Notes under the pieces: model-generated | Seen by the model: the letters and a program-made list of their open reading frames with translations, nothing else | Databases searched by the model: none | Told to the model about the DNA's origin: nothing | DNA from: a virus | IMG/VR virus record: IMGVR_UViG_3300011423_000003 | DNA: 47,490 nt | Direction: 5' to 3' (one strand) | Part shown: piece after piece, positions 1,187 to 28,901 of the stretch | Numbering within the stretch: the first letter of the stretch is position 1 | How the letters are laid out: every line of letters starts with the position of its first letter | Translations under genes and position numbers: made by a program

Positions 1187-1325
1187 ATAGGACAACAGTC
1201 TCGGACGTAGGACTCGAGGCCCATATGCTTTTAGTCCTAGGACTCGTAGCCTAGGACTGCAGTCTCTGCAACTGGGAGTTGGTGATAGCTATGCGCTTTG
1301 AGCATACCTATGACTCGAGTCCTAT
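1187..1325. promoter_or_regulatory. Array of about 6 (A/T)TAGGACT half-sites in both orientations, with 10-12-bp palindromes
   Basis: TAGGACT at 1208, 1238 and 1252; ATAGGACA at 1187; inverted AGTCCTA at 1233 and 1318. Palindromes AGTCCTAGGACT 1233..1244, GACTGCAGTC 1255..1264 and GACTCGAGTC 1312..1321. Lies in the divergent intergenic region. Confidence 0.7.
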
Positions 1326-1488
1326 GAGACTGCATTCCTACAACTCAGGGTGGGGGTGCCCCGACGAAGCAACTTGGCACAGTTTTTGCAAGCCCTCAGA
1401 ATATCGCTCGAGTGTTTTCTGACATACCTCACTATCACTGTTTACTGTCGCAGTTACTCAGAGGTACACTAAAAAAGATCCAAGGGGC

Positions 1489-1517
1489 TTGACACGCCTC
1501 GGAGAGAGGCGTAAACT
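1489..1517 (+). promoter_or_regulatory. Sigma70-like promoter for the + arm
   Basis: TTGACA (1489..1494), 17-nt spacer, TAAACT (1512..1517), about 20 nt upstream of the GTG start at 1539. The spacer contains the inverted repeat CGCCT/AGGCG. Confidence 0.45.
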
Positions 1518-1538
1518 GCGAACAATGGGGAGGGCTTC

Positions 1539-1994
1539 GTGAGTCTTGTACGGCCTTCGATCGAGCGTCCTATTTGTCGTGTGATACTTGTGTGCGGGCC
1601 TCCGGCTTCAGGTAAATCGACTTACGTCCGAGTCCACGCGAAGACAGGTGACACCGTGATCGACCTCGACGTCATTGCTCAATCGTTCGGACTCAAGAGA
1701 GGATGGCCAAGCACTCACTTCGCCCTCGTCATGAGGGAGTGGGCAAGCCGAATGAAGGCGTTGGCTCAGCTAGGGCCGTTGGATGTGGCTTGGGTTGTGA
1801 TGGGCGCTCCGCTTCGAGAGCAACGGGAGCATTGGGTGAGGGCGCTCGGAGTCAAGTCCAGTGATTTGATTGTGCTCACGGCTACGAGAGAGGAACTCTT
1901 TGAACGGATCAAGGCCGATCCAGAGCGGAGTCGAGTCCGGTCGGAGCAAGTGCTCGCCGTTAGGAACTGGTTCGAGTTGGAGAAGATCGGATGA
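1539..1994 (+). CDS. P-loop NTPase, polynucleotide-kinase-like (AAA_33 / T4 Pnk kinase-domain type)
   Basis: GTG start preceded by GGGGAGGG. Walker A GPPASGKST is followed about 15 aa later by VIDLD, the arrangement seen in the T4 Pnk kinase domain. The stop overlaps the next start (ATGA). Confidence 0.7.
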   Translation: MSLVRPSIERPICRVILVCGPPASGKSTYVRVHAKTGDTVIDLDVIAQSFGLKRGWPSTHFALVMREWASRMKALAQLGPLDVAWVVMGAPLREQREHWVRALGVKSSDLIVLTATREELFERIKADPERSRVRSEQVLAVRNWFELEKIG

Positions 1995-2473
1995 GGGAGG
2001 TTCATCCACATCTCTTCGTCGGGAGCGCCGAGGACTACAAGGCTTGTCGGAGTGAGGCGGGTTGGTCTTTTCTTACCTGCGCGAAGGAGCCGTGGCACCG
2101 GAGTGCGTTGGGTTACGAGGGTCGAAGTGCTCCGAGAGAACACCCGGAGTATCTCATGGCTCGGCGGGGTGATCAGTTGATCCTTAACATGGTTGATGCT
2201 ATCAATGCCGCCTACTTCCATCCAGAGATGATGGATGCCGGAGTGGAGTTCATCGAGGCCGAACTGGAGAAGGGCCGGAACGTCTTGATCCACTGCAATC
2301 AAGGCCACTCTCGAGCCCCAGGAATGGCCTTCTACTTCCTCTGGAAGAAGCGGGGCTTCGGGAAGGGTAAGGTCTTCAGCGATGGCGAATACGAGTTCAA
2401 GCAACACTACCCCAGCTACAATCCGTCGGAGGGGATTAGAGAGTTTATCCGCGTTGAGTGGAGGCGGCCATGA
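1991..2473 (+). CDS. Cys-based phosphatase (HCX5R, dual-specificity/PTP fold)
   Basis: Signature VLIHCNQGHSRAP matches the H-C-X5-R active-site loop. ATGA overlaps with both neighbours. Confidence 0.75.
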   Translation: MREVHPHLFVGSAEDYKACRSEAGWSFLTCAKEPWHRSALGYEGRSAPREHPEYLMARRGDQLILNMVDAINAAYFHPEMMDAGVEFIEAELEKGRNVLIHCNQGHSRAPGMAFYFLWKKRGFGKGKVFSDGEYEFKQHYPSYNPSEGIREFIRVEWRRP

Positions 2474-3087
2474 CACGGATCTTAGGGAGGCCGTCGGCTC
2501 CGGAAGTGGAGACGGACTTCGTTCGAGAACTGAACGAGGCGGATCTGGTTCTCTTGGACGCACCACGCGGAGTCCAGTCAAAACCAATAGCGAAGCTTCG
2601 CGACAGTCATCACGCCCTTGCACGAGCCTTGAGCGCAGGTATGAAGCCTGGCGAAGCGTCGCTGATCACTGGCTACAGTCTCAGCCGAATAAGCGTCCTC
2701 CAGGGCGATCCTAGCTTCAAGGAGTTGCTCGAGTTTTATCGCGGCCATCAGGACACCGCTTATGCGAACCTCCACGACCGAATGGCTACTCTCAGTATGG
2801 ACGCCCTTGAGGAACTCCGTGAGAGACTTGATGACCACCCTGAAGAGTTCACGCCCGGAGCGCTTCTTGAGATGGTTAAAACACTGGCTGATCGAACGGG
2901 GTTCGCGCCCACCACCAAAAGCTTGAACATGAATGTGGACTTGAACTCATTCGCGGATAAGCTTCAAGCGGCGAGGAAACGCGCTGAGCGGCCCCAACAT
3001 AATCAAGCCTTAACAATCGAGGTCAAGCAAGTCCCCGCTCCTACCGACAGCAGCCTGCTTGGCCGCGAGCCGGAGGATCAGAAATGA
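2470..3087 (+). CDS. terS: Putative terminase small subunit (HTH protein upstream of TerL)
   Basis: ATG at 2470 with GGAGG 5 nt upstream and an ATGA overlap with the phosphatase stop. HTH-like segment GEASLITGYSLSRISVL. Positioned directly before terL. Confidence 0.55.
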   Translation: MTRILGRPSAPEVETDFVRELNEADLVLLDAPRGVQSKPIAKLRDSHHALARALSAGMKPGEASLITGYSLSRISVLQGDPSFKELLEFYRGHQDTAYANLHDRMATLSMDALEELRERLDDHPEEFTPGALLEMVKTLADRTGFAPTTKSLNMNVDLNSFADKLQAARKRAERPQHNQALTIEVKQVPAPTDSSLLGREPEDQK

Positions 3088-3141
3088 TTCTCCGGCACTT
3101 TACCCCCTCCAAGGTTGTTCGCGAGCCGGCCTTGGTAACTC

Positions 3142-3172
3142 GAGGGCGTCCGCATAACGCCCTCTCTTTTTT
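3142..3172 (+). terminator. Rho-independent terminator
   Basis: Stem GAGGGCG(T)/(A)CGCCCTC with a 7-9-nt loop, followed by TCTTTTTT. Confidence 0.7.
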
Positions 3173-3192
3173 AGGCCAAGCGGAGTTCAGCA

Positions 3193-4734
3193 TTGTTAGC
3201 TAAAATCGAAGACCCTCAGAAAGAGATGGCTGACGCACTTGCTCGCTACACCAACGACCCTGTTGGTTTCGTCGCTTGGGCTTTTCCTTGGGAAGCGCCG
3301 GAGACGGAGTTGGAACGGTTTAAAGGGCCGGAACAATGGCAGCTGACGGTCCTTGAGGGGATTCGGGATGGCTTGCTCACAGCGAACCAAGCAATCCAGC
3401 TTGCTGTTGCTTCCGGTCACGGCGTCGGGAAGAGTGCGTTGGTCGCGTGGATCATTCTTTGGTCTTTAACCACCTTCGAGGATTGTCGTGGAGTGGTCAC
3501 AGCTAACACGGAAACGCAGCTGAAGACGAAGACGTGGGCCGAGCTGACGAAGTGGCACCGGCTGTTCATGGGTCGTGAACACTTTAAGATGACAGCCACT
3601 GCGATCTACAACACAGGCCCTGACCGCGAACGAAGCTGGAGAATAGACTTGATCGCTTGGTCGGAGCGGAGCACAGAAGCGTTCGCTGGACTGCATAACA
3701 AGGGCAAGCGGATTCTGGTGATCTTCGATGAGGCCTCGGCTATTCCAGATGTGATCTGGGAGACGACTGAAGGCGCGCTGACGGACAGTGATACACAGAT
3801 CGTATGGATGGTCTGTGGGAACCCGACTCGTAACTCCGGCCGGTTTAGAGAGTGCTTCGGCCGCTTCCGCTACCGCTGGAAGACGTTCGAGGTGGACTCC
3901 AGAACCGTCTCCATTACTAACAAAGAGCAATTCAAACGATGGGTCAGGGACTATGGCGAAGATAGCGACTTCGTTCGAGTTCGCGTCCGCGGAGTGTTTC
4001 CACGAAGCGGGTCGATGCAGTTCATCGGGCTTGATACAGTTGAAGCTGCCACTCAGAGAGAGCTACCGGCAAGAGCCTCGCCATTCGAGCCGTTTATTAT
4101 TGGAGTTGACGTTGCTCGCTTCGGTGACGACGCCAGCTGCATCGCGTTCCGCAAGGGAAGAGACGCTCGAACAGTTGAGCCTATCATTCTGAGAAACGTC
4201 GATACGATGCAACTCTCAGGGAGGGTCGCTGATGTCTTTTCGCAGTATAAGGCGGACGCAGTATTCGTGGACGGCGGCGGAGTGGGAGGTGGTGTTGTTG
4301 ACCGTCTTCGCCAGCTGCATGTCCCTGTCTTCGACATCCAATTCGGAGGGAAGAGCGACCGAACAGATCTTGAGGAGGGTGCAAGAAGTGCTAACAAACG
4401 ATCAGAGATATGGCACTCAATGAAGAAGTGGCTTGAGATCGGCTGCCTGCCGAACGAAGGTCAGTTCATGCAACAATACAGAGAGGAACTCCCTGGACCT
4501 GAGTACGGCTTCAACATCCGAGATGAAATTCAGCTGGAACGCAAAGAGGATATGAAGCGACGGGGCTACGCTTCGCCCGACTTAAGCGACGCCCTTGCCC
4601 TTACCTTCTCTTATCCTGTGATGCCGAGCATTTATGCTGGGGGCGAGCACGCACAGTTCCGGTCGAAGCAGCCAATGGCTGAAGGCGTTGACTACGACCC
4701 CTTCACGAACAGGGCGATTGGAATCAGCGCGTGA
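3193..4734 (+). CDS. terL: Terminase large subunit
   Basis: Walker A-like SGHGVGKS, Walker B ILVIFDEAS, and the nuclease-domain motif IGVDVARFGDDAS. The start is uncertain (TTG 3193 or ATG 3226). Confidence 0.88.
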   Translation: MLAKIEDPQKEMADALARYTNDPVGFVAWAFPWEAPETELERFKGPEQWQLTVLEGIRDGLLTANQAIQLAVASGHGVGKSALVAWIILWSLTTFEDCRGVVTANTETQLKTKTWAELTKWHRLFMGREHFKMTATAIYNTGPDRERSWRIDLIAWSERSTEAFAGLHNKGKRILVIFDEASAIPDVIWETTEGALTDSDTQIVWMVCGNPTRNSGRFRECFGRFRYRWKTFEVDSRTVSITNKEQFKRWVRDYGEDSDFVRVRVRGVFPRSGSMQFIGLDTVEAATQRELPARASPFEPFIIGVDVARFGDDASCIAFRKGRDARTVEPIILRNVDTMQLSGRVADVFSQYKADAVFVDGGGVGGGVVDRLRQLHVPVFDIQFGGKSDRTDLEEGARSANKRSEIWHSMKKWLEIGCLPNEGQFMQQYREELPGPEYGFNIRDEIQLERKEDMKRRGYASPDLSDALALTFSYPVMPSIYAGGEHAQFRSKQPMAEGVDYDPFTNRAIGISA

Positions 4735-4816
4735 GGCACATCGAAGCTGATAAGTTTTTGGTGGGGACGGTCTTGATCCTGATACTTTTGCTTGTCGTTT
4801 GCGGAGTGTCAAAATA

Positions 4817-5278
4817 ATGGCGATACAGCTTGGACAGCCGGTTGTCTTCAGACCAGGCACGGCCTTTGAAGAGAGGTGGGGACCGGGACAATACCTCTCG
4901 GGAATGGTCACGAGCATCACTGGTGGTGAAGCCTCACTGATCGTTTGGCCCGCCGGGGAGTATCCACCTTATTACGAGCTGCGTGTCAGTCGAGACGATG
5001 CCCTGGCAAAGCCCCGCACATGGACGCCCTCGGTCAGTGACACGTCTGCCCTCCCCGAGGCTCCTTCGGATGGACAGATCTACGGCCGCCGGAATCAGGC
5101 TTGGACGCCCGTAATTACTGGTGGATCTGGTGGTGGTGTCTCTGCTATCGTTATCTCCGATACTGTGCCTGCACAGCCTCTCGAGGGAATGGCGTGGCTG
5201 GACACCACCATCAACAACTTCTTCATTTATCAACAAGGTGTTTGGGTCGAGCCCGCTCACCTGAACCCTGTTCCGTAG
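4817..5278 (+). CDS. Small tail-fibre-like protein
   Basis: ATG 4817 (the track start at 4799 is TTG). Motifs typical of fibre proteins: EAPSDGQIYGRRNQAWTPV and ISDTVPAQPLEGMAWLDT...FFIYQQGVWV. Confidence 0.6.
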   Translation: MAIQLGQPVVFRPGTAFEERWGPGQYLSGMVTSITGGEASLIVWPAGEYPPYYELRVSRDDALAKPRTWTPSVSDTSALPEAPSDGQIYGRRNQAWTPVITGGSGGGVSAIVISDTVPAQPLEGMAWLDTTINNFFIYQQGVWVEPAHLNPVP

Positions 5279-5287
5279 GACACTGAG

Positions 5288-7324
5288 ATGGCAATTCAGT
5301 TTCCAATCAACCCGCAGCAAGGCCAACAGTACACCCCTGCTGGTATTCCGCTGACGTGGCAATACGACTCGGGGCGACACGCCTGGAGAGTGCTTCGCTC
5401 GGCCGCAAGCTGGAGTGAGATTGGGGGGAAGCCCGCTACATTCCCGCCTTCCGCCCACTCTCACATCATCGCGGATGTCACTGGATTGCAAGCGGGTTTA
5501 GATCTAAAGCAAGACTCGAGTGCAAGAGGCTTCCCGAACGGTTACGCCTCGCTCGATGGAAATGGCCTCGTTCCAACAAGCCAGCTGCCTCCACTCAGTG
5601 AGACTGATTGGAACCAGATTGAGAACAAGCCAAGCGAGTTCCCACCCTCCGCTCACTCCCACCCCGTCGCCCAGATCAGCGACAGCTCAAGCGTTGGTCA
5701 GCAACTCGTTCGCTCACCCACGGCTCAAGATGCGAGGAATGTGATTGGGGCCATTGGGCCTGATGACAACGCTCGAGTTAAGGTTAAGCTTGCTGGCGTC
5801 TCGATGGGGATCAGACGAGCGATCAACTTTATCGAGGGCTTGAATGTTACACTGGCTGTTGCGGATGATGCTGTTAATGAAGAGGTGGATGTAACGATTA
5901 ACTCGTCTGGTGGAGGCGGGGGTGGAGCCTCGATCCTCGTCAGTGAGACCAAGCCCGTTGCACCAGCTGACAATACGATGTGGCTCGACTCGGCGACAGG
6001 CATCACTTACATCTACTACAACGACGGAGGTGGCCATCAGTGGATTGAGCCTCTTCCCTACATTCCTGCGCAGCCAGCCGCTTACACAAAGATAGTCTTC
6101 CCCGTCGCACCAGTCAACGATCAAGCCTTCACTGCGTATGCGGGGGCGGTCTGGAAGTGGTCATCGGTGAGAGGTGTTTGGTACGCAGCACAGACAGCCA
6201 GTCAGTCTTATACGAAGGCTGAGGCGGACACTAAGTTCGTCGATATTGTCGGCGATACTATGACGGGGGCGTTGACACTGAACGCCAACCCGACCGCTCC
6301 ACTTCAGGCCGCCACCAAACAGTACGTCGACAGCAAGGCTCCGATCATCGTAAGCGACACTCCACCACCCACCCCACTCGACAACACGCTGTGGTGGGAA
6401 AGTGATACTGGCATTCTTTATCTCCGCTATAATGATGGCGTAGGCCCTGTTCAGTGGGTCCAGGCGGTTGCGACACCAGTGCTCGATACGTCAGCGCTTG
6501 TTAAGAAGGCTGGCGATACGATGACTGGTAACCTGGTGATCAGTACACCAGCTGGCAATGCATCACTTACTTTAAATAGTGGTATCAGCAATATCGAGAT
6601 TGGCAGGATGGATGGCGTTGCCAGCACTCCATTCATTGATTTCCACTCAGGTGCAGCGGTTACTGACTTCGATGCTCGATTGATCGCGAGTGGAAGTGGC
6701 GCTGCAGCCGAGCTTAAGTTAGATGGCGGAAACTTTGTGCTGCCCCGCGATCCTACGTCAGGGCTTCACGCTGCTACTAAGCAGTACGTCGATCTCAAGA
6801 CATCGAACAGACAACGCTTCACTTTAGATGGACTTAACTTAATTGACATTCCAGTCCCCGCGGGTGCTGTCGCAGCGAAGTTAAGTGGTTCAGCTTATTT
6901 TGCGGGAGCTGGCAATACATATCCTATGATACAGCTGAGTACTTCGGCCGGAGTGTTTATTAACTCAGTAGGGGGCTATGTCTTTAGTGGGAATCAGTTT
7001 ACTGCTTATCCAGCTGCAGCTTGGGCCTACTATACTAATAATGCTTCTATTGCAGGTTTCTTTTTGGTGCAAACTCAAGATAATAGTCAACTTCCTTTTA
7101 ACTGGGATGGGTTTATGCAGGTGAAGAGAAAAACAACAGGAAATTATTTTTCAGGTGACTTCATATCGAGAGGTTATAACAATGCAACTGGACACGGGAT
7201 ATTTACTTTCAATAACCGTTGTCAGACTCCGGGTTCCGGTCTTAGTGTCTTAGCTATTCGTTTTATACTGTATGGCGGCACCCTCTTCGATACTAACAGT
7301 GTTCTCATTGTGGAGTGGCTGTAA
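5288..7324 (+). CDS. Tail fibre protein (678 aa)
   Basis: Repeated fibre motifs (KP(A/S)(T/E)FPPSAHSH twice, ATKQYVD twice, ISDTPPP..LWW). The C-terminal third is visibly AT-richer. Confidence 0.85.
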   Translation: MAIQFPINPQQGQQYTPAGIPLTWQYDSGRHAWRVLRSAASWSEIGGKPATFPPSAHSHIIADVTGLQAGLDLKQDSSARGFPNGYASLDGNGLVPTSQLPPLSETDWNQIENKPSEFPPSAHSHPVAQISDSSSVGQQLVRSPTAQDARNVIGAIGPDDNARVKVKLAGVSMGIRRAINFIEGLNVTLAVADDAVNEEVDVTINSSGGGGGGASILVSETKPVAPADNTMWLDSATGITYIYYNDGGGHQWIEPLPYIPAQPAAYTKIVFPVAPVNDQAFTAYAGAVWKWSSVRGVWYAAQTASQSYTKAEADTKFVDIVGDTMTGALTLNANPTAPLQAATKQYVDSKAPIIVSDTPPPTPLDNTLWWESDTGILYLRYNDGVGPVQWVQAVATPVLDTSALVKKAGDTMTGNLVISTPAGNASLTLNSGISNIEIGRMDGVASTPFIDFHSGAAVTDFDARLIASGSGAAAELKLDGGNFVLPRDPTSGLHAATKQYVDLKTSNRQRFTLDGLNLIDIPVPAGAVAAKLSGSAYFAGAGNTYPMIQLSTSAGVFINSVGGYVFSGNQFTAYPAAAWAYYTNNASIAGFFLVQTQDNSQLPFNWDGFMQVKRKTTGNYFSGDFISRGYNNATGHGIFTFNNRCQTPGSGLSVLAIRFILYGGTLFDTNSVLIVEWL

Positions 7325-19245: not shown

Positions 19246-22200
19246 GTGCCAAGAGCATCTTTATTGAATGTGCCTTACACTGGGACGCCGACTGTTGAGT
19301 CGAACGCGCCTCCAACTGCATGGCAAAATATTAAGGTAAGTGATGAACAGTTTGGCTCCCAAGTCGGAGCTGCGCTTAAGAACTTTGGTGGGACGCTTGA
19401 GCAGCTTGGTCAGACCTTCGGGGCGATCGAGGAGAAGAATAAACACGAGCTAGAACAGACGAAGGCTCGCGAGATCGACACTAATATGTATAAGGAGTTC
19501 ACGAAGCTCGATACTGAGTATCGGCTGAAGGGTGGGGAAGATGCTGTTAATGGCTGGGATGATAACGAGAAAAGAAGAGAGGAGATTAAGGCAAATGCAC
19601 TGAAGGCCGCTGGCGGGAATAAGCGCATTGAGCGGATGGTTGGCGCGAGCGCTGAAAGTCATATCCGCAGCTCATTCGGCGCTTCGTGGAAGCATAAGGA
19701 AGGGGAGATTCTTAAGTATGGGGATAAGGTGAGTGATGCTCGGATAGATGCGGCCTCGAGTAAGGCGGCGACCTCGATGAACCCTGACGATTTGACTAAT
19801 GCTTTCGCGGTCATTGATGGAGAGTCAGCGGAAAAAGCGAGGCGAGGTGGATGGTCTCCTGAACAGACTGAAGTCTTTGCGAATGACCGGCGAGCACAGA
19901 CAGCTTCGGCCTTCATTGGGAACGTAGCAAAGCATTATCCAGATACAGCACAGAAGTATTTTGACCAAAATCAAGAGGTGCTGAAGCTTCATCCAGGCGC
20001 TTTCAAGGCAGCGGAAGACGCGATCTCGAAGGGCTTTGCGGGAAAAGATACGGCTGCCAAAGGTTCTGACTTAATCAATGGTACAAAGCCTAAGCTGGAG
20101 GAGCGGAGGCCAATTCCTCCAAGGCCGCCTGATCCGACTGGACCGCTTAAGCTTCGTGTCCCGCTTCCAGCGACGGGGCCGAAGACAGAAGCTCCGAAAG
20201 AAGAGAAGAAGGTCGCGGCAGCTGATCTTGAGGAGCCACTTAAGAAACCGACTGGCTTGGCTGAAAAGGGAAACATTGATATTGATAAGCGGAAAGTGCT
20301 GAAGAACGCTGATGGCTCGTTCAGCACTGAAAAATCGTTCTCGACTAACATCGACGGAAAGGAAGTGCTGCTCCCGACGATTATCAATGGGAAAGAGGTT
20401 TCACAAGAAGAGGCCGTTAAGCACTATAAAAAGACTGGAGAACATCTAGGCAAATTCAATACACCTGAAGATGCCGACGCTTACGCAGAGGCGCTTCATA
20501 AGCGTCAAGAACAGAAGTATGGGCCTGGAGCAGAGACAAAGCCGGAGACGAAGCCTGAGACAAAGCCAGGTGCGAAGCCGCCTGCAACAGCACCTGATCG
20601 ACATAAAGTTACGGAACGTGAGTATCCGCCTGAAGAGACGGAGATAAGCGCGGCAAGGCGAACGTATGCTGTTGGACCAACAGGGACTCCAAACCACGCG
20701 ATCCCTGGATATACAGCAGGTAGTGCTGAAGTTGAGCACTATGTTGTAAATGCTGCGAGGGCAAGAGGAATTGATCCTGGGACTGCGTTGCGCGTTTATC
20801 ACAGCGAGGGTTCGGCCGGTTATAAGTCTTCGATCCCTGGTGAGAACTCTTGGGGACCGTTTCAGCTGTATACCGGAGGTGGATTAGGAAACGAGTTCCA
20901 AAAAGAGACTGGACTTGATCCGAGTGATCCAAAGAACTGGCAAGCGACAGTTGATTATGCACTGAATAAAGTGATTGAGCTTGGCTGGAAGCCTTGGAAT
21001 GGGGCGAAAGCAGTTGGGATTACTGGTTATCAAGGTGTGGCGAACGATGCGAGGCCTGTTAAAGTTGGAGAGGACATTCATCACGAAAATCCTGTTGATT
21101 TTGAAGAAGAGGACAACAAACCAACTCCACTTAAGGAACGGTCGATCATTGCTTATTCGAAGGCACAGCAAACAGGTGACTTGACTGTAAAGCCTAAGGC
21201 GGGGTCGAGGCTCATTCTTGCACAAAAAGGGCATACTAGAGATAAAGATCTTCATCCACAGTTGAATAGTGCGATTGAAGATGCTGCTGCGGCGGCAGGA
21301 GTGTTCATTCGAGTGACGTCTGGAGGCCAAACGAGTGATCGAAATCCAAGCAGGAAGGATCAACCTGGAGGTTGGACTGGTTCACACAGACATGATGACG
21401 GTCGAGCAGCTGATATTGATATACTTGATGAGAATGGGCGGAATATAACTGATCGAAATGATCCGCGGCGGCTGGCGTTTTTGAAAGAGGCAGCGAAGAG
21501 AGGAGCTGGAGGGACAGGCACTGGTTATATGAGTGATAATTTGAAGGTTCATGTGGGGATCACTGGAGCTTCGGGGGAGATTGGACAAGGACTTGGTGTT
21601 TATTCGAGACAGTCAACTGCAAAAGAGTTGGCGGCAGTTGAGGAAGGACTTAAAGAGGCTGGAATAACGCCTGGAATTGCTCGTGGCGGCGGAAGTGATC
21701 GGATAGACGGGTCTGGACCTGTCCGTTTGGCCGCTTATCACGGCGGAGCGACGATGAGTGACGCTCCACCACCTGAAGCAACGGCTGGGACACGCTTTGC
21801 ACAAGCAACAGTCAACGCCCCACGCGCTCCACAGATGGATGGACCGCTTACAGCCAAGTCAACGGACGCCGATCTCGAGGCCCGCATCAAGAACATGAAA
21901 GATGAGGCGAGAGCGCTTGGTCACGACGAGTCTTATGGAGAGAACATCGCTGCACAAGCCCGATCACAGTTTGCGACGATGAAGCGGACTGAAAACGAGC
22001 TAGATAAGAACGCGAAAGACGAGATGGGAAGGCTTGTCTATGGAGATGGGAAAGAAGAGGGAATTAAGGACTTCTCAGCGATAACGGACGATCCGAAAAA
22101 GCTCGAGAAGTTCCAGCGCTTGTCTGGACCAGAGCAAGCAACGATGCGAGCGCATATTCAGAAGAATGCAACTGAAGCGTGGGGGCCTGTTTCATCAGAA

Positions 22201-22809
22201 CAGCTTGATAATTGGGACAACCTCGTCGCGAACGCTCCTCACGACCCCTCGATGCTCGAGAACATTGATATGAGCAAGATTCATCCGCAGCTGAGAGCAA
22301 GGGTGATGAAGCTTAGGGAAGATGTGCTGAAGGGAGGTGGGGCGAGTACGATGGAGGCTCAACGAGTTGATAAAATCCTCTCAAGTCCTGACGTTGAGTG
22401 GCAGCTTAAACGAGCCGGACTCTTCGAGAAGAATGAAAAGGGGAAAGACGTTGAAGGGCCTGATTACAAAGAGTTTAGAGCCAAGTTTACTGGTCAACTG
22501 CGTTACTGGCAGGAGTCTAATCCAGGAAAAGGAGGGCCAAAGCAGGAAGATATTAACTTGATGGTAAATAGTTTGATTAGGAAGATAGATCAACCGCCTG
22601 AAAAAACTTGGTACGGTGGTAAGAGAGAAGTTCCGTCAAAGCCATTCTTCAAAACGCCACTGTCGGTTCAAGAGTCTAATCAAGTTGTTAATCAGTGGAA
22701 TGAGCGGAATCCGAGTAGGCCAGCTGCGACAGTTGATGACATTCCACCAGAAGCGGTTTGGCATTGGCGGAACTCTGTTAACAAGAGATCGGGATCATGG
22801 CAGCCGTAA
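19246..22809 (+). CDS. Internal virion protein with lytic transglycosylase-like and M15 peptidase-like domains (1187 aa)
   Basis: GTG start after AGGAGG. SLT-like VYHSEGS...SWGPFQL (Glu codon at 20806..20808). M15/VanY-like SHRHDDGRAADID (21382..21420). KPETKPETKPGAKP linker (about 20533..20580). Confidence 0.8.
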   Translation: MPRASLLNVPYTGTPTVESNAPPTAWQNIKVSDEQFGSQVGAALKNFGGTLEQLGQTFGAIEEKNKHELEQTKAREIDTNMYKEFTKLDTEYRLKGGEDAVNGWDDNEKRREEIKANALKAAGGNKRIERMVGASAESHIRSSFGASWKHKEGEILKYGDKVSDARIDAASSKAATSMNPDDLTNAFAVIDGESAEKARRGGWSPEQTEVFANDRRAQTASAFIGNVAKHYPDTAQKYFDQNQEVLKLHPGAFKAAEDAISKGFAGKDTAAKGSDLINGTKPKLEERRPIPPRPPDPTGPLKLRVPLPATGPKTEAPKEEKKVAAADLEEPLKKPTGLAEKGNIDIDKRKVLKNADGSFSTEKSFSTNIDGKEVLLPTIINGKEVSQEEAVKHYKKTGEHLGKFNTPEDADAYAEALHKRQEQKYGPGAETKPETKPETKPGAKPPATAPDRHKVTEREYPPEETEISAARRTYAVGPTGTPNHAIPGYTAGSAEVEHYVVNAARARGIDPGTALRVYHSEGSAGYKSSIPGENSWGPFQLYTGGGLGNEFQKETGLDPSDPKNWQATVDYALNKVIELGWKPWNGAKAVGITGYQGVANDARPVKVGEDIHHENPVDFEEEDNKPTPLKERSIIAYSKAQQTGDLTVKPKAGSRLILAQKGHTRDKDLHPQLNSAIEDAAAAAGVFIRVTSGGQTSDRNPSRKDQPGGWTGSHRHDDGRAADIDILDENGRNITDRNDPRRLAFLKEAAKRGAGGTGTGYMSDNLKVHVGITGASGEIGQGLGVYSRQSTAKELAAVEEGLKEAGITPGIARGGGSDRIDGSGPVRLAAYHGGATMSDAPPPEATAGTRFAQATVNAPRAPQMDGPLTAKSTDADLEARIKNMKDEARALGHDESYGENIAAQARSQFATMKRTENELDKNAKDEMGRLVYGDGKEEGIKDFSAITDDPKKLEKFQRLSGPEQATMRAHIQKNATEAWGPVSSEQLDNWDNLVANAPHDPSMLENIDMSKIHPQLRARVMKLREDVLKGGGASTMEAQRVDKILSSPDVEWQLKRAGLFEKNEKGKDVEGPDYKEFRAKFTGQLRYWQESNPGKGGPKQEDINLMVNSLIRKIDQPPEKTWYGGKREVPSKPFFKTPLSVQESNQVVNQWNERNPSRPAATVDDIPPEAVWHWRNSVNKRSGSWQP

Positions 22810-25800
22810 CCGATATTTTTGACTTGACAGAGACTGGAACGGAGCCAGCCAAGAGCGAACCTCTTGAGGAAAATCCATTCGAGGAAAGTGAACAAGATAA
22901 GAAGAAGCGTGGGGCAAGAGCACTGCTCGGCAATGCCGACGCCGATCCAGAAGCGGCAGGAAAATCGTTTCAGCTCGCAAAAAAGTATAAGGTCGATCCA
23001 GCGCTTGTTGACGTTGACTACCCTTCTTGGGAGAGTGATCTTAAGATCGGCGAGAATATCAATATCGTTAACTCGAATAAGGCGGTTCGAGATTACATTA
23101 ACTCAGATCCAATGGCGGCCCGAGTAAGTCACGATGATCTAGGGACACTTGATAAGATCACGAAGGGAATTGCAAACGCTTGGGCTTGGGCAGGAGAGAA
23201 CCTTAATCCAATCTCGACGGCGAAAGCGGAAGGAGCCGAACCTACTTTTGGACCGGCAAGCCCTCCAATCAAGCCAAGCCTTCCTGACAGCCACGATGTT
23301 GACTTCTCTTCGGCAGCGCACTATGGAATGGTGGCGACGAGGCTCGGCTTACTCGGAGCCAAGCTACAGGGAGCAAGTCCAGAGGAAGAAGCTGTCTTAA
23401 GGCCTCAAATCCAGGCACTTCAAAAGGAGTTGATGAATAGGCCTGAGTCGAACGGAGTGGTCAATTATCTAAAGAACTTGATCGGTGGCTTTGCTGGTCA
23501 GATGTGGGAGGGGAAGGAGCATCTTGCGACGCAAGCGACTGCTGGCTCGGTGATGATGGGGACTTTTGGAGCGATCGGAGGCCCTGTCGGTGCTGGCACA
23601 GGTATGGGGATCGGCTTCGCCGCTGGACTTGCACAGGGCTTTGCAACGCTTTCTGCTCAAACGTCAGCGGGCAACGTCTATCTTGCTATCGAAGACATCG
23701 AGGGCTTGTCAAAGTCGAACAAGCAAATAATTGCTGGTGGTGCAGGGTTGGCTGTTGGTGTGCTTGAAGCGGCGGGAGGGGCGCTTGTCCAAGACTTGAC
23801 GATGCAAATTGTCAAGAATGTCACTGCCAATGAGATTGGTAAGGCGGGGATCAAACAGATTCTTGGTGAGTTTGCGAAGGATACTGCTTTAGGAGGCGGT
23901 ATCAATGCTATGCAAACGGTCGCCGAACAGCTTGGTGAACAGATTGCAAAGGTTGCTGGGACTCGTGACCTGAAGACAATCTTGAATGACAACGGCGAGC
24001 GGATGAAGTTCGCTGGCGAGGTCGCACAAAGCTTCATCGACGGCCTTGTGTTGACGAGCATTCTTTCAGGGCCGTCCGCTGCCCTTCATGCAAGAGGATC
24101 AAGAACAGGCGATCAGATTGCAGCCACTCGAGCACAAGGCAATCAAGCACGACTCGATGATTTGATGACTAACGCTCAGGCGAGCTTGACTAAGGAACGG
24201 TCACCTGAACAATTCGAGAACGTGCTTGCACGACAAAGCCCCGATCCAGTGCTCTTCCTCGATCCAAGCATAGTCACACAGTTCAAGGATAAGTTTGGCT
24301 TCATTCCTAACCTCGAAGTTCAGATAGCCAACGCGAATTATCTTGGGACCGAGATACAGGTCAACCAGAGCAAGCTTGTTGCTCATCTTGACCCGACGCT
24401 TTATCCACAGATAAGAGATGGGGTCCGCTTCGGCTCGTCTGAGTTGAATCCAGCGGAGGCGCTCAAGGTTCAACAAGCTGAGATCCAGCGTCAACAGAAG
24501 GAGATGGAGCGGGCGGCGCAAATAAAGGCTGATCAAGAGTCAGGAGTGCCGATCCCGCCAAAGGAGAACATTCCTGATGTGGACTTGATTAGAGAGATCT
24601 TTGGGATTGACTCGAAGGAAGTGGAGCCAGCCGTTAAGCAAGCTGTTCAACAGGCGACGGAGCAGCTCAATGTTCCTCCGGCCGCTGCTGAGAAAGCACA
24701 AAGCTTGATTGACCGCTTCCTTGGTCGAAGACAGTTGCCAACCGCTGAACAGTTTGATGTTTGGGTACAGAGAGAAAATCTCAAGAACTTGTTGATGATT
24801 AAGCGGAAGCCACTGCAAGAGGCGCAAGTGTCGCCGACGCCCGAGGCGCTCTCTGTCGACGCAAAAGTGATTACAGAGGACACGAGTGGGCGACCGCAGA
24901 CACAAGACGCTTCAACAATCCAGCCGTCACCGAAGGCGGACAGTGAAGTCAATCTGACTGTGGAGATTGGTAAGGCCGAGTCGAAGACGCTGATTGACCA
25001 TCTCCGAACTTTGATGGATGCAGAGCTTCCTGACAACATAGAGGAGGCCATTCTTGGTCGAGCCCTCTCCCGATCGCCAGGCAACAAAGCGGAGTTGCAT
25101 AACTTCATTGACGAAGAAGCGAAGATCACGAATATTACTGAGCCGAAAGCTATTGAAGCTATTAAGGCTCAGGCTGACGCAGCACTGGCGGCGCTCGGGA
25201 CGCGTCTGATCAAGGAGAATACAGCTGCTGTTGTTAATGGACTGTCGGACAAAGACGCGCAGATGGTGGCAAGGGCAACTGCTCGGGCGCTTGATGAGTC
25301 TCGTTATGTGATGGCCTTCACTCCATTGTTTGAGAATGGAGAAGGCATGACTCCAGCTGGTCGTGCTGCCTATGAACAGCATATTCAAGATGTTCAAGCG
25401 GCAATGAGCGAAGCTGTTTTTGAGGCCGCTCGTGAAGTGACGGAGATGAAGGAGACGAAACGCTGGGCGGATCAAAAGGCGAAGATGAGGCCGGAAGCTG
25501 AAGAGACTGTAGCTAATACTCCAGTGATCATCGCTGACGAGTACTTCAGGACCGGCCGTTCACGAGCACTCGCCGATGAAGTGACTGATCTCCAGATGAC
25601 GAGGAGGGATGTAGACTCGATCTTCACCGCGGAAGAACTGACAGCGATGGGGATCAAAACCAAGTACTTAAGTAAGAGTGTGCTGATGCAAGGGATGAGG
25701 TGGGCCAAAGAAGACTCACCGAATGTTGGTTCATCTGATATGTTCGCGGAGGCCTTCGGTTACTCAACTGGCACTGATATGATACTCGATTTGATGAGGT

Positions 25801-28800
25801 ATCGGGCCGATCTCAAGACGAACAAAGAAACGCACGAGCAACATTTCAATCGACTGGTTGAGGAAGAGCTTAATCAACGGATGATGGAGGAGCACGGTAA
25901 TCTCCAGACCATCATTGACAATCAAGTTATTGGAGCCGCCTGGAATATCGCTCAAGAGCGGGTGCTCAAGAACGAGCTTGATTCACTGTCACAGATGACC
26001 GGCTCGGATTTAATTCAACTGCCTGATATGAAGAAGATCGTCGACTCGAGCATGAGGGAGATGACGAACGCTCAAGCGATGGATACCAAGACTTATCAAC
26101 AGAATGCTGGGCGACATGGGCGCTTGTCGAAAGAGGCAAAGGATGCGGGAGACTTGTTGACGGCCCTGAATGAAAAGCGGCTGCAAATGCAGTCTGCGAT
26201 GATGGCGAAGTGGGGACAAGAGCATAAGAGGGAGGTGATACTTAGTCAACGCCTGGTTAACAAAGTGACGAACATTGCGAGGGCTAAGGACTTTGATCCT
26301 GACACTAACACGCGAATGCTCCAGTTGATCGCGATGTCAGGGCTTGATCCAGGCGCTCGTGGACTGCGAGTACTTGAGAAGGATATTGGTGCGCTTAAGG
26401 AGCCTGATCTTGGAAAGTGGATTCAGGATCGGAATGAGCTTAACAATGCTGACACTATTCCGACGCCGACATACTTAGGACAAAAGGTTGAACGGCTCCA
26501 AGACTTGAGTCAGATGAATGTTGGGAACTTCAAAGAGTTTAATGACACACTAAGAGCGATGGAGTTTGTTGGAAAGAACGAAAAGCTTGTTGGTGAGAAA
26601 GGACAACAGTTAGAGCTTGGTCAGGTGCTTGATACAGTGAAGGCGCAAGTCGCTGACTTGGCTGAGGCGCGCGGTTATGAGAAGTATGGTGATCCCATCC
26701 AGCCAGAAAGAGGGATTGCTGCAAAGTGGCGTGGGTCGATCGCGAACTTGTTAAGGGTTGAGACGGTCACGATGAAGATTGATCGACTTGACCCTGACGG
26801 GATTATGAACAGAGTTTTGATTAAGCCACTTAAGCTTGCTCAAAAGTGGAAAAATGAAGTAACGGCTGATGTTGCGAAGTACTTGAAGACAGTGGATCAT
26901 GGGGAGTGGGCTGGAGTTAAGGGAGCGAAAGTAGATACACTGAAGCGAACAGTCCCGAATGACTCGATCATAGCGCCGAACGGGAAGCCGAGAGAGTTTA
27001 GGCGAGATGAAATGCTTATGGTGGCGCTTAACTGGGGGAACGCCCATAATCAAGATATGATGGCGAACTCACTGAACTCAGACAAGACGACAATAGGGTC
27101 TTGGCTTGCGAAGAACATGACAAAAGAGAATTGGGACTTCGTTAGCAATATCTGGGAGATGTATGAGAAGAAACTGAACCCGATTAGAGATGGAGTGTAT
27201 CAACGGACTCGAGGGTTCGGGATGGAGTATCCTGAGCCAGTCGGCTTCATCGACGCGCATGGAGTTAATCGAAAGGGCGGCTACTTCCCGATAATGAAGC
27301 TGAGAGAAGAAGGGATTGAGGGGCTGAAGTCGAGTGAAGTTGGTGGCTTGATTGACAATAGAGTTTTCGATCCACTGCCAGCCAACTCACACAGGCAAAC
27401 TGCCAAAGAGCAGCGAGAAGGCAAGAACATTTTACTGACGCTGAACTTTGATGAGCTGCCGAACAGGATTAAGGAAGACATTCATGAGCTGACGCATAGG
27501 GAGGCGGTACAGAATGCAGCGAAAATAATCAATGATAAGAACTTTTATGATACTGTGTTTAAGGCCTTCGGCAAAGGTCAAGCCGATCTTTTCAAGCCTT
27601 GGCTTGCTGGAATGGCGAGCGATGGAGGGAGAGCAGATCTTGTCCAAGCGAACGCTTTCCGCTGGTGGATGGGGAAGCTACAGTCGAATACAATCTCGAA
27701 TGTGATTGGCTTTAATCCGGGAACCATGCTTGTCCACAGTCCAACTGCGATGATGAACACTATCGGCGAAGCAGGGCTTGACACGTTTAGGGCTATTAAG
27801 CTGGCAGTTGGTGACTCTCAGCTAATGGATGCCTGGGGAACGATCTCGAGGTCGAAGAGTAATTGGGATCAGATGACGGGCTTTGCGCTTGAGAACTCAG
27901 CTGAGCTATCGACTCGTATGAAGGACAAGAAAAGGGACATTGCTTACTCACTTGGACAGTGGGGGAATTGGGAGTCATTCCAACACAACAGCGAGTATGC
28001 AGGGCAACTGCAGATCGCTTACACAGACTATATGACGGCAACAGTTGCTTGGTGGGCCGGTTACTTAAAGGGTGAACGGGAAGGAATGAGTCATACTGAT
28101 GCGGCGCTTTATGGAGATAAGCTTGTTCGTCTAGCTCATAACTCCTCGAATTTGATGGACAAATCACAGTTCAACATCGACAAGTCCCTACGTCCCTTTG
28201 CTCAGTTCTATGGCTTCTTCAACCACGTCGTCAACCAGCTGCATGTCAAAGGCTTCAAGGTTGCGGAAGATGTGAGAGATGTTAAACAAGCGTTTGCTGA
28301 TCGTGCTGCGAAAGAGACGATGCAAACCTTTAGTGAGATGGGAAAGTCGATGGGAGGAGCAGGTTTCACTGCATTTTCGGCAGGGGTGTTTTATGTAGGA
28401 GCGCTCGCCTTTATTCACTCGATAATTAGAGGTGAGCCACATAAAGATGATCCTTGGGGAGTGACGGCCGTTAAAGAGTTAGCAGGGTTAGGAACAACTT
28501 TCGTCCCATTCGTTAAAGAGGCTTCTTACGCTTTGCTTCACGGAGAGTACGCAAGGGCGAGCATTCCACTGACGGCAGCGCTTGATGTGCCGAGAAGATG
28601 GATGCGGGATGTTAAGAAGTATGCAACGAAGATTGATGCAAGTAAGATGGAAACTTGGATACCACCACTTCAAACATCGTTCGAGCTTCTCGGGGTTTTT
28701 GCTGGAGTTAAACTGACGTCGAAGCAGATGGGACGTTGGGCTGAAGAAGCACAGCGAATACAAAGAGGGGAAGTGCCGCCTCCGAGGAACTTCACGGAGT

Positions 28801-28901
28801 GGAGGCGCTTGATTGTTTATGGTCGCTCGACGCCGATTGGCTCAAGACGAAGCACGAGTGGGACACGGCCGCTCACAGCAGATGAAATGCGTTACAGGTA
28901 A
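22797..28901 (+). CDS. Giant internal virion / DNA-ejection protein (2034 aa)
   Basis: Uninterrupted 6.1-kb ORF at the gp15/gp16 position. Gly-rich hydrophobic segments (VMMGTFGAIGGPVGAGTGMGIGFAAGLAQGF; GGAGFTAFSAGVFYVGALAFIHSII). No enzymatic motif recognised. Confidence 0.75.
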   Translation: MAAVTDIFDLTETGTEPAKSEPLEENPFEESEQDKKKRGARALLGNADADPEAAGKSFQLAKKYKVDPALVDVDYPSWESDLKIGENINIVNSNKAVRDYINSDPMAARVSHDDLGTLDKITKGIANAWAWAGENLNPISTAKAEGAEPTFGPASPPIKPSLPDSHDVDFSSAAHYGMVATRLGLLGAKLQGASPEEEAVLRPQIQALQKELMNRPESNGVVNYLKNLIGGFAGQMWEGKEHLATQATAGSVMMGTFGAIGGPVGAGTGMGIGFAAGLAQGFATLSAQTSAGNVYLAIEDIEGLSKSNKQIIAGGAGLAVGVLEAAGGALVQDLTMQIVKNVTANEIGKAGIKQILGEFAKDTALGGGINAMQTVAEQLGEQIAKVAGTRDLKTILNDNGERMKFAGEVAQSFIDGLVLTSILSGPSAALHARGSRTGDQIAATRAQGNQARLDDLMTNAQASLTKERSPEQFENVLARQSPDPVLFLDPSIVTQFKDKFGFIPNLEVQIANANYLGTEIQVNQSKLVAHLDPTLYPQIRDGVRFGSSELNPAEALKVQQAEIQRQQKEMERAAQIKADQESGVPIPPKENIPDVDLIREIFGIDSKEVEPAVKQAVQQATEQLNVPPAAAEKAQSLIDRFLGRRQLPTAEQFDVWVQRENLKNLLMIKRKPLQEAQVSPTPEALSVDAKVITEDTSGRPQTQDASTIQPSPKADSEVNLTVEIGKAESKTLIDHLRTLMDAELPDNIEEAILGRALSRSPGNKAELHNFIDEEAKITNITEPKAIEAIKAQADAALAALGTRLIKENTAAVVNGLSDKDAQMVARATARALDESRYVMAFTPLFENGEGMTPAGRAAYEQHIQDVQAAMSEAVFEAAREVTEMKETKRWADQKAKMRPEAEETVANTPVIIADEYFRTGRSRALADEVTDLQMTRRDVDSIFTAEELTAMGIKTKYLSKSVLMQGMRWAKEDSPNVGSSDMFAEAFGYSTGTDMILDLMRYRADLKTNKETHEQHFNRLVEEELNQRMMEEHGNLQTIIDNQVIGAAWNIAQERVLKNELDSLSQMTGSDLIQLPDMKKIVDSSMREMTNAQAMDTKTYQQNAGRHGRLSKEAKDAGDLLTALNEKRLQMQSAMMAKWGQEHKREVILSQRLVNKVTNIARAKDFDPDTNTRMLQLIAMSGLDPGARGLRVLEKDIGALKEPDLGKWIQDRNELNNADTIPTPTYLGQKVERLQDLSQMNVGNFKEFNDTLRAMEFVGKNEKLVGEKGQQLELGQVLDTVKAQVADLAEARGYEKYGDPIQPERGIAAKWRGSIANLLRVETVTMKIDRLDPDGIMNRVLIKPLKLAQKWKNEVTADVAKYLKTVDHGEWAGVKGAKVDTLKRTVPNDSIIAPNGKPREFRRDEMLMVALNWGNAHNQDMMANSLNSDKTTIGSWLAKNMTKENWDFVSNIWEMYEKKLNPIRDGVYQRTRGFGMEYPEPVGFIDAHGVNRKGGYFPIMKLREEGIEGLKSSEVGGLIDNRVFDPLPANSHRQTAKEQREGKNILLTLNFDELPNRIKEDIHELTHREAVQNAAKIINDKNFYDTVFKAFGKGQADLFKPWLAGMASDGGRADLVQANAFRWWMGKLQSNTISNVIGFNPGTMLVHSPTAMMNTIGEAGLDTFRAIKLAVGDSQLMDAWGTISRSKSNWDQMTGFALENSAELSTRMKDKKRDIAYSLGQWGNWESFQHNSEYAGQLQIAYTDYMTATVAWWAGYLKGEREGMSHTDAALYGDKLVRLAHNSSNLMDKSQFNIDKSLRPFAQFYGFFNHVVNQLHVKGFKVAEDVRDVKQAFADRAAKETMQTFSEMGKSMGGAGFTAFSAGVFYVGALAFIHSIIRGEPHKDDPWGVTAVKELAGLGTTFVPFVKEASYALLHGEYARASIPLTAALDVPRRWMRDVKKYATKIDASKMETWIPPLQTSFELLGVFAGVKLTSKQMGRWAEEAQRIQRGEVPPPRNFTEWRRLIVYGRSTPIGSRRSTSGTRPLTADEMRYR

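Follow-up and report, generated by a model that had tools for sequence, protein, structure and literature searches.

A P-loop kinase and a dual-specificity-fold phosphatase in a variable slot ahead of a phage terminase module

Two enzyme genes at the start of the packaging arm

The virus genome IMGVR_UViG_3300011423_000003, a stretch of 47,490 nt to which we refer in its entirety (and not merely to the feature under study) as the window, carries a gene for a P-loop kinase and, overlapping it, a gene for a cysteine (Cys) phosphatase shortly upstream of its terminase genes. An earlier note, made from the sequence alone, had read these open reading frames (ORFs), here ORF A and ORF B, as a pair heading the packaging operon and possibly devoted to nucleic-acid end healing. 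Here, we examine whether the two genes belong together, where else their families are found, and which reading best accounts for them. The genome is that of a phage, circularly assembled at about 47.4 kb, whose group is one of T7-supergroup-like podophages. Its + arm begins at 1539 and holds the packaging and structural genes, and the − arm encodes a primase, a split DNA polymerase, a ParB-nuclease/methyltransferase fusion, a Sak4-like annealing protein, an exonuclease and a helicase. On the + strand, kinase and phosphatase genes are followed by ORF C and by the gene for the large terminase subunit (TerL):

1539..1994, + strand: ORF A, a stand-alone P-loop kinase of the AAA_33 family; GTG start, 151 residues, with GPPASGKST at residues 20-28 and IDLD at 41-44
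1991..2473, + strand: ORF B, a Cys phosphatase of VH1-like dual-specificity fold; ATG start, 160 residues, with HCNQGHSR at residues 101-108
2470..3087, + strand: ORF C, a candidate small terminase of 205 residues; a conserved core gene, directly 5′ of TerL in close relatives
3193..4734, + strand: TerL, with matches to phrog_2 (8.7e-43), phrog_5902 (4.3e-71) and Terminase_6C (4.3e-4)
1489..1517, + strand: a sigma-70-type promoter-like site, TTGACA-17 nt-TAAACT, with 10 of 12 consensus matches
3142..3173, + strand: an intrinsic-terminator-like hairpin between ORF C and TerL, with an 8-bp stem (6 G-C pairs) followed by the T-run TCTTTTTT
1188..1340, no strand: a cluster of TAGGACT-type direct and inverted repeats (families D1-D6 and I1-I9) in the divergent intergenic region 5′ of the unit

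The two enzyme assignments made from motifs in the earlier note held up. ORF A, recognized there by its GPPASGKST and IDLD motifs, matches Pfam AAA_33 at 40.2 bits (cutoff 27; E 5.2e-10) over profile positions 1-141 of 143, and its AlphaFold2 (AF2) model, with a mean predicted local distance difference test (pLDDT) score of 92.2, retrieves adenylate, UMP-CMP, shikimate and polynucleotide kinases at a Foldseek probability of 1.0. To which of these is it closest? The best E-values belong to adenylate and UMP-CMP kinases, and by this measure adenylate and nucleoside monophosphate (NMP) kinases match ORF A as well as or better than the polynucleotide kinases (Pnk) of phage T4 and Clostridium thermocellum. 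The best superpositions, in contrast, are with the C. thermocellum Pnkp kinase (template modelling score, TM, 0.63) and T4 Pnk (TM 0.61; root-mean-square deviation, rmsd, 4.4 Å), with which ORF A shares the P-loop fold and an alignable Walker A motif and general-base aspartate. When the family alignment of ORF A was compared by hhalign with the T4 Pnk kinase domain, whose sequence had been checked against PDB entries 1ly1 and 1ltq, D44 came to lie opposite the general base D35, with only 34 residues aligning, and the substrate-contacting R38 fell on A47, a position that is alanine in at least 90% of the family. D42 and D44 are invariant or nearly so. Among the features of a T4-type Pnk, ORF A thus has the general-base aspartate, yet it has neither an equivalent of R38, nor a fused or obligately linked 3′-phosphatase of the HAD or metallophosphoesterase type, nor a ligase partner. 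The earlier remark that no ligase is visible holds for the 25 window proteins scanned, most ORFs of the structural arm lying outside that scan. From the conservation of Walker A residues K26, S27 and T28, of D44 and of R96, R123 and R130, we infer that ORF A is a catalytically intact P-loop phosphotransferase. As judged by its model, it looks like an active enzyme of the Pnk/NMP-kinase fold, yet classing it as a Pnk would not be justified.

ORF B matches Pfam DSPc at E 5.8e-7 (29.8 bits, below the cutoff of 33.5), a precomputed PF00782 match exists for most of its homologues, and the profile of its family aligns with DUSP10 and VHR at E about 1e-9 (DUSP10 1.4e-9). Its AF2 model (pLDDT 96.8) retrieves DUSP8, DUSP16, DUSP12, DUSP19 and DUSP5 at a Foldseek probability of 1.0 and TM scores of 0.6-0.74, bearing out the Cys phosphatase call that had been based on HCNQGHSR; the closest viral structure is that of an uncharacterised VpV262 protein (TM 0.88). 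With VHR/DUSP3, DUSP10 and other mitogen-activated protein kinase phosphatases, ORF B has in common the fold, the HCxxGxSR phosphate-binding loop and a general-acid aspartate about 32-33 residues upstream of it. D69, C102, S107 and R108 are invariant across 160 family members, and D69 sits 33 residues N-terminal to the nucleophile C102, a spacing that matches that of general acid D92 and nucleophile C124 in VHR. Unlike these VH1-like dual-specificity phosphatases (DSPs), the ORF B family has conserved residues of its own and is at home in phages and in prokaryotic Type I restriction-modification (R-M) operons. In view of its sequence conservation and modelled fold, ORF B is probably a catalytically intact Cys phosphomonoesterase with C102 as nucleophile and D69 as general acid. 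Cys-type RNA 5′-triphosphatases, such as baculovirus BVP, PIR1/DUSP11 and the metazoan capping enzyme, do not require the general-acid aspartate and typically lack it. The invariant D69 therefore fits ordinary phosphomonoester hydrolysis and argues against activity on 5′-triphosphate RNA, which the earlier note had listed among the substrates to be assayed and which we regard as unlikely; the best baculovirus-type structure, 6i28, ranks 39th among the Foldseek matches of ORF B.

For the third gene, ORF C, over 120 homologues are found, and no Pfam domain is recognized in any of them. It lies directly 5′ of TerL in all close relatives and in most distant ones; in the distant relatives L248 and L249, TerL follows immediately 3′. 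A helix-turn-helix (HTH) resemblance to the Pam5 small terminase is non-significant (E 0.26). Position and this faint resemblance make ORF C a candidate small terminase. Hence, where the earlier note had ORF B overlapping terS, the overlap is real, but the label stands on these two indications only. The TerL downstream is of the phrog_2/Terminase_6C type. ORF C and TerL genes overlap directly in distant relatives, as opposed to the hairpin-containing gap of the window.

ATGA overlaps join ORF A to ORF B (1991-1994) and ORF B to ORF C (2470-2473). Both are real, but the translational coupling that had been read into them is no special signal: of the 66 same-strand junctions in the window, 17 show a 4-nt and another 8 a 1-nt overlap, which places four-base overlaps among the commonest junctions of this genome. 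More informative are the sequences that flank the unit. The promoter-like site, the sole match to its motif in the window, ends 21 nt before the kinase start codon, and a GCTTGACA-N17-TAGCCT/TAGACT arrangement precedes the kinase in the sister loci L005 and L006. A hairpin with T-run occupies the same ORF C-TerL gap in L006 and in L004/L012, and is not clearly seen in L005; in the window, it may attenuate TerL expression or end an early unit. Together, these consensus matches suggest a discrete unit read by the host RNA polymerase. Given a promoter of its own and a hairpin before TerL, the earlier claim of co-expression with terminase, and not with early genes, is doubtful.

At the level of whole-sequence searches, megablast of positions 1200-5300 against GenBank phages gave no match, and an NCBIfam scan of the window proteins gave none above noise.

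Separate distributions and a variable slot

Do the two genes travel together? Co-occurrence in other phage genomes was the test proposed in the earlier note itself. We scanned all ORFs in 80 viral loci per family with hidden Markov models (HMMs) of both families and found kinase and DSP together in 7 of the 80 loci of each, all of them close relatives of the window phage. Outside this sub-clade, the kinase was found in none of 73 phosphatase loci and the phosphatase in none of 73 kinase loci. Likewise, no kinase lay within 8 kb of the DSP in any of 80 cellular loci, and no DSP domain occurred in any of the 147 kinase-family representatives taken from a protein census described below. The pair is thus confined to the sub-clade of the window, and even there the genes are separable: the sister loci L003 and L004 have the DSP and lack the kinase, with an Acb2/Tad1-like gene upstream of the DSP instead. 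The proposal of a kinase and a phosphatase co-evolving as an end-healing pair does not survive these counts.

In the sister loci L005-L007, an Acb2_Tad1_hairpin gene is inserted between kinase and DSP. These sister genes match their family at E 1e-11 to 1e-14, above the Pfam cutoff. Members of the Acb2/Tad1 family are sponge proteins, which capture and withhold the signals of CBASS and Thoeris (PMC12043709, PMC12393519). The sister phages thus hold, in the same promoter-proximal position, a gene akin to these and other anti-defence genes, and the content of the position varies between close relatives. Unlike those phages, the window has no Acb2-like gene, and ORF A and ORF B are unrelated to any described anti-defence protein that we found here. 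The unit carries a sponge gene in the sister phages, and a discrete promoter-to-terminator arrangement therefore fits. Identities among the sister phages point the same way: they amount to 81-84% for TerL and 85-86% for ORF C, whereas the DSP reaches 58-65% and the kinase 44-46%, the lower values for the two enzymes being the pattern of fast-evolving or exchanged accessory genes.

What precedes ORF C elsewhere? We anchored a set of 86 loci on ORF C, including 80 further relatives fetched for this purpose. Kinase, DSP and Acb2-like genes were found upstream of ORF C only where the latter is at least 83% identical to that of the window. Relatives whose ORF C is 38-57% identical, with a terminase-sized gene (~490-540 residues) immediately or shortly downstream, have neither kinase nor DSP. 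Among the distant relatives with called genes, ORF C of L248, L249 and L251 opens the + arm right after the divergent − arm, again with no kinase and no DSP, and the portal of distant relatives belongs to the T7-type Head-tail_con family. The packaging module of ORF C and terminase thus seems to be shared by distant relatives that have neither enzyme. The stretch between promoter and ORF C is, in consequence, a variable, sub-clade-specific accessory locus.

Two further approaches to this slot were of limited reach. The divergent gene at 637-1107, used as a second anchor, led to the sub-clade and one other locus only. Seemingly recurrent upstream clusters (U0, U6, U7 and others) in a census of the longest ORFs in the slot proved to be mostly low-complexity shadow frames and were set aside.

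Wider families of the two enzymes, and other features of the genome

Beyond the sub-clade, the kinase belongs to a very different setting. Besides the 80 viral loci, we took an exhaustive census of 1.8 billion proteins, in which the family comprises 1,890 clusters at 50% identity (E<=1e-10), and inspected the top 147 representatives. HNH-kinase fusions make up 59 of the 80 viral loci; an HNH gene lies nearby in 5 more, and 16 have none. Among the census representatives, 81 of 147 carry an HNH domain, which is N-terminal to the kinase in 77. The fusion proteins P0136-P0149 match ORF A at E 2e-14 to 1.6e-5. Downstream of the HNH-linked kinase follow, typically, a small terminase subunit (TerS; Terminase_4/phrog_83), an HK97-type TerL (phrog_9) and a portal (phrog_12); TerL lies downstream of the kinase in 56 of the 80 viral loci, at a median distance of 648 nt.

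Two described phages illustrate this arrangement. In mycobacteriophage ThulaThula, the order runs from gp79 (HNH) and gp80 (kinase) across the genome end to gp1 (TerS) and gp2 (TerL), and gp80 matches ORF A by tblastn at E 4e-8. In Lactobacillus phage Lrm1, the C-terminal domain of gp54 (N.phiLrm1) matches the HMM of the kinase family at E 3e-25. Xu and Gupta described gp54 as an HNH protein with a C-terminal Walker-A domain that nicks DNA; nicking is not stimulated by nucleoside triphosphates (NTPs), the authors assign no function to the Walker-A domain, and the protein had previously been mis-annotated as a small terminase (PMC3592412). HNH proteins at this position are required for cos packaging (PMC12967558; PMC3592412). 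ORF A is homologous to Lrm1 gp54 and to the mycobacteriophage Cluster P 'polynucleotide kinase' represented by ThulaThula gp80, with GPPASGKST or GYPASGKST, VIDLD and the position upstream of terminase in common. It differs from both in being a stand-alone protein, in a genome in which a six-frame search found no HNH match, and next to a TerL of the phrog_2/Terminase_6C rather than the HK97-like phrog_9 type. In other words, ORF A shares homology and terminase-upstream position with the HNH-associated P-loop domain, but has no fused or adjacent HNH; by sequence, it represents a packaging-module domain that stands alone. For the parent family, the most likely site of action is on or close to DNA, at the terminase/HNH step. 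Since the family is fused to HNH nucleases, DNA ends or nucleotides are the most plausible substrates of ORF A.

The label 'terminase small subunit' nevertheless attaches to this kinase family, in phrog_4581 and in NC_051738.1 gp80, NC_028796.1 gp77, NC_023692.1 gp82 and EU246945 gp54. Phages with a kinase so labelled carry a separate TerS gene at the other genome end. The separate TerS in ThulaThula and Lrm1, together with the kinase fold, led us to reject the kinase as the true TerS of the PHROG and RefSeq label, which looks like a propagating mis-annotation.

Viral DSPs are likewise often found near terminase genes. A TerL gene lies downstream on the same strand in 48 of the 80 viral loci, and in 40 of 72 outside the window sub-clade; the median gap is 687 nt, 0-2 genes intervene in 38 loci, and three TerL types are represented. 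Upstream, an ERCC4 nuclease is frequent. Some viral loci deviate from this scheme. In Vibrio phage 1.077.O (Zobellviridae; L001, 4453-5498), a DSP homologue is found among early genes, directly 3′ of, and overlapping at stop and start with, a HAD-superfamily 'acid phosphatase'; with a metallophosphatase nearby, three phosphatase folds occur within ~3 kb of this early region. In a single lineage of viral loci (L069-L072), the DSP has a class-III aminotransferase (Aminotran_3, E 9.5e-51) and a P22-like portal as recurrent neighbours; the aminotransferase might be part of a pathway for sugars or DNA modification.

Cellular relatives of ORF B were found in 358 species-level genomes, spanning Planctomycetes, Chloroflexi, Acidobacteria, Proteobacteria, Bacteroidota, Firmicutes, candidate phyla radiation (CPR) bacteria and methanogenic Archaea. 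Culturable organisms among them include Gracilimonas mengyeensis DSM 21985, Pseudidiomarina terrestris, Acetobacter tropicalis LMG 19825, Novacetimonas hansenii JCM 7643 and Bradyrhizobium spp. For the best 80 of these loci (L252-L331), we searched 8 kb on either side for Hsd genes. At least one Type I R-M gene was present in 31 of the 80, in Bacteria as well as Archaea, and in 22 HsdM, HsdS and HsdR were all on the strand of the DSP. The order in these operons is hsdM-hsdS-DSP-hsdR, and the junctions are often tight: a 4-nt overlap joins hsdS to the DSP start in L252, L260, L265, L271, L283 and L318, and hsdR starts 4-50 nt past the DSP stop in L259, L260, L262, L318, L327 and L329. Further neighbours are of defence-island types, namely RhuM/PDC-S05, DUF6978/PDC-M24A, a GajB-like UvrD helicase and an SngC/BrxH-like helicase. 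DSP-holding Type I operons (e.g. L256 8480-11400, L252, L277 and L300) often embed RhuM (PADLOC candidate PDC-S05) and DUF6978 (PDC-M24A) as well, these operons being carriers of several accessory modules. One viral DSP locus only, L025 (IMGVR_UViG_3300026519_000410), also holds HsdM, HsdS and HsdR; it is either a misclassified cellular fragment or a phage or prophage with a Type I R-M system that embeds the DSP.

The position between hsdS and hsdR is familiar. It is that of the anticodon nuclease PrrC, and such genes are seen as 'guardians' of R-M systems (PMC3874165, PMC12707154). Cellular ORF B homologues share this kind of position with the PrrC and RloC genes, being co-oriented with the neighbouring hsd genes and often overlapping them at stop and start codons. 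Unlike them, they encode a Cys phosphatase and not an ATPase-anticodon nuclease, and the window copy is phage-borne, without Hsd genes nearby (no Hsd match was found in the window). In the searchable literature, we found no description of a Cys phosphatase in Type I loci, of a characterised phage DSP, or of a phosphatase beside terminase.

How similar are phage and cellular copies? Identity among cellular DSPs is 53-58%, even between domains of life, as against 40-45% among phage DSPs and 42-46% between phage and cellular ones; by nearest neighbour, the two form mostly separate groups. The catalytic residues do not vary in any context. Most residues particular to the family (H36, Y42, Y54, N66, Y140, G148 and, less strictly, R37, E53 and R59) reach a conservation of at least 81% whatever the context, and phage copies show markedly lower conservation at H51 and R45. 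The family-specific surface residues are kept in phage and cellular settings, and the family is conserved from archaeal to bacterial hosts; the substrate is therefore probably universal, and not a host-specific protein.

Several other features of the window genome deserve mention. The TAGGACT-type motif (TAGGACTSNAG, at most one mismatch) has 13 matches in the window against 5.1 expected, 5 of them within 1208-1340 (~135 nt). Copies in this divergent region include TAGGACTCGAG and TAGGACTGCAGTCTC, and similar GAGTCCTAGG repeats lie upstream in the sister locus L004; the repeats could be operator, regulator-binding or origin sites. An exact 123-nt direct repeat, ending in a run of ~23 A, is found at both termini (1-123 and 47368-47490) and could either have arisen where the ends of a circular or permuted genome overlapped in assembly or be a true short terminal repeat of T7 type. 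DNA polymerase is encoded by two − strand ORFs (30510-33759), of which 32737-33759 corresponds to the N-terminal and 30510-31967 to the C-terminal part of phrog_17; some inserted element or the remnant of an intein or intron may lie in the ~770 nt between them, or else a small gene of its own. Also on the − strand, 34166-35416 encodes the ParB-like nuclease fused to a DNA methyltransferase (phrog_12047, phrog_498, phrog_67), and the adjoining 33759-34169 weakly resembles nucleoside 2-deoxyribosyltransferases (27.6 bits against a cutoff of 28.8); the two may be linked to DNA modification or anti-restriction. In the structural arm, two very large adjoining ORFs of 1187 and 2034 residues (+ strand, 19246-28901) may, by analogy to other T7-supergroup podoviruses, encode internal virion or ejection proteins.

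Readings of the locus and what they imply

What brings these two enzymes to the head of the packaging arm? We favour, with moderate confidence, a picture of two unrelated accessory genes in a variable slot, the phosphatase probably being engaged in a conflict with host defence. The independence of the two genes is the firmest part of this picture, and the counter-defence role of ORF B its softest. Kinase and DSP would have been inserted separately, within one sub-clade, between a conserved host-type promoter and the TerS-like ORF C; as separately mobile genes, they would not constitute a dedicated two-enzyme system. ORF B would be expressed from the small promoter-to-terminator unit that in sister phages carries an Acb2/Tad1-type sponge, and would, as its conservation and fold suggest, hydrolyse a phosphomonoester via a C102 thiophosphate intermediate with D69 as general acid. 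Because its cellular relatives are at home in Type I R-M operons and an Acb2-like gene is its neighbour in sister phages, ORF B most likely has its role in the struggle with host defence, where it might interfere with Type I restriction, for instance, or with a function tied to it. The broad idea of the earlier note that host defences might be countered here thus remains plausible on these grounds, in contrast to the end-healing route proposed for it.

Several observations weigh against this picture. PADLOC returned no significant match for ORF A, ORF B, ORF C or the Acb2-like proteins of the sister phages. No Hsd gene lies within 8 kb in 49 of the 80 cellular DSP loci, and, given their largely separate sequence groups, phage and cellular DSPs could have diverged in function. 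The adjacency of DSP and TerL goes back to only some three or four independent lineages, not to 48 separate events, and could just mark a module boundary that gathers accessory genes. The promoter and terminator are called from consensus matches only, and the enzymatic activity of both families is likewise predicted from sequences and models. Finally, the link of the kinase to packaging modules elsewhere does not by itself fit counter-defence.

A bolder version, which we hold to be possible though rather doubtful, extends the restriction theme. The DSP family would be an unrecognised part of the Type I restriction conflict: cellular copies would tune or back up restriction by dephosphorylating a universal target, such as HsdR or DNA ends, and phage copies such as ORF B would be captured early anti-restriction enzymes, of a new enzymatic kind, that switch restriction off or disarm a guardian function. 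In its boldest form, the Pnk-like kinases of cos phages and the DSPs would be antagonists in the phosphorylation of phage DNA termini.

Alternatively, both proteins might be packaging or terminus-processing factors that set the phosphorylation of terminase-made DNA ends, a possibility that we consider unlikely. The neighbourhoods speak for it in part: HNH is fused or adjacent to the kinase in 64 of 80 viral loci, the kinase (56 of 80) and the DSP (48 of 80) often have TerL downstream, HNH proteins at this position are needed for packaging (PMC12967558, PMC3592412), and both window genes lie ahead of ORF C and TerL. Yet relatives with a 38-57% identical ORF C manage without both genes, a sister phage lacks the kinase, no HNH gene is present in the window, and the nicking activity of Lrm1 gp54 is indifferent to NTPs. 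Moreover, the cellular context of the DSP is restriction-modification, and the terminator-like hairpin parts the unit from TerL. HNH and TerL nucleases already leave 5′-phosphate and 3′-hydroxyl ends.

End healing itself, as a two-gene unit, is less probable still. A Pnk-like 5′-kinase would here be joined by a Cys-type 3′/5′-phosphatase in place of a HAD, metallophosphoesterase or HD domain, and the two would mend tRNA or DNA nicked by host defence nucleases, using a host ligase. Established end-healing systems employ a HAD (T4), metallophosphoesterase (C. thermocellum) or HD phosphoesterase and no Cys phosphatase, and opening of 2′,3′-cyclic phosphates is not known for Cys phosphatases. In its favour, the kinase model is closest by TM and rmsd to polynucleotide kinases (C. 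thermocellum Pnkp 0.63, T4 Pnk 0.61), D44 pairs with D35 of T4 Pnk in the alignment, the window has the two genes side by side with an overlap, and the PrrC-type position of cellular DSPs in Type I operons makes a theme related to tRNA or defence possible (PMC3874165). What decides against it is that co-occurrence is limited to one sub-clade, in which L003 and L004 keep the DSP without the kinase, that the T4 R38 position is a conserved alanine, that no ligase is found among the scanned proteins, and that the real partner of the kinase family is an HNH DNA nuclease. A Pnkp-type system with a Cys phosphatase would, if true, add a new module for repair or counter-defence, but this is not borne out by the evidence.

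We regard as similarly improbable that the DSP is a protein phosphatase acting on phosphorylated tyrosine, serine or threonine (pTyr/pSer/pThr), rewiring host phospho-signalling in the manner of the DUSPs of eukaryotic viruses, with the kinase an unrelated nucleotide kinase. The nearest solved structures are indeed protein-directed DUSPs (DUSP8, 16, 12, 19, 5 and 10, and VHR), and the layout of HCxxGxSR and aspartate matches that of VHR. EcoKI HsdR is reported to be phosphorylated on threonine, with a role that is not known, making a protein substrate within R-M systems conceivable (PMC3874165). Conservation of the DSP family from methanogenic Archaea to Proteobacteria, Firmicutes and CPR bacteria, at 40-58% identity and with its own surface residues kept, however, is hard to square with host-specific protein targets, and neither a kinase partner nor signalling genes recur near the DSP.

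A role of one or both enzymes in nucleotide metabolism or DNA modification, for instance as a kinase of deoxynucleoside monophosphates or modified nucleotides and a nucleotide phosphatase, is the least probable of all: adenylate and UMP-CMP kinases do top the Foldseek E-values of ORF A, the window has its ParB-nuclease/methyltransferase fusion and weakly deoxyribosyltransferase-like protein, and an aminotransferase stands beside some DSP loci, but the scanned window proteins include no thymidylate-synthase-like protein, no glycosyltransferase and no other hypermodification enzyme, HNH fusion and a terminase-proximal site would be unexpected for enzymes of the nucleotide pool, and the two genes do not co-occur. 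The hypermodified DNA described in a 2026 paper involves HAD phosphatases and unrelated kinases.

Returning to the picture of two independent accessory genes, what does it add? Both superfamilies are known already, and the HNH-linked kinase domain has been noted before. What appears to be new is a stand-alone kinase and a DSP found in one slot together with an anti-defence gene, how large the HNH-kinase family is and how systematically it is mis-annotated as TerS, and a phosphatase family linked to Type I R-M operons. Databases list the kinase domain as either 'polynucleotide kinase' or 'terminase small subunit'; it makes up a very large, mostly HNH-fused phage family. The slot between promoter and ORF C, which also holds Acb2/Tad1-type sponges, is a good hunting ground for further counter-defence genes. 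As a member of Type I R-M operons and a recurrent terminase-proximal phage gene, the DSP offers a concrete hypothesis for culturable hosts. Enzymatic anti-restriction by a captured phosphatase would, if true, be a new kind of anti-restriction.

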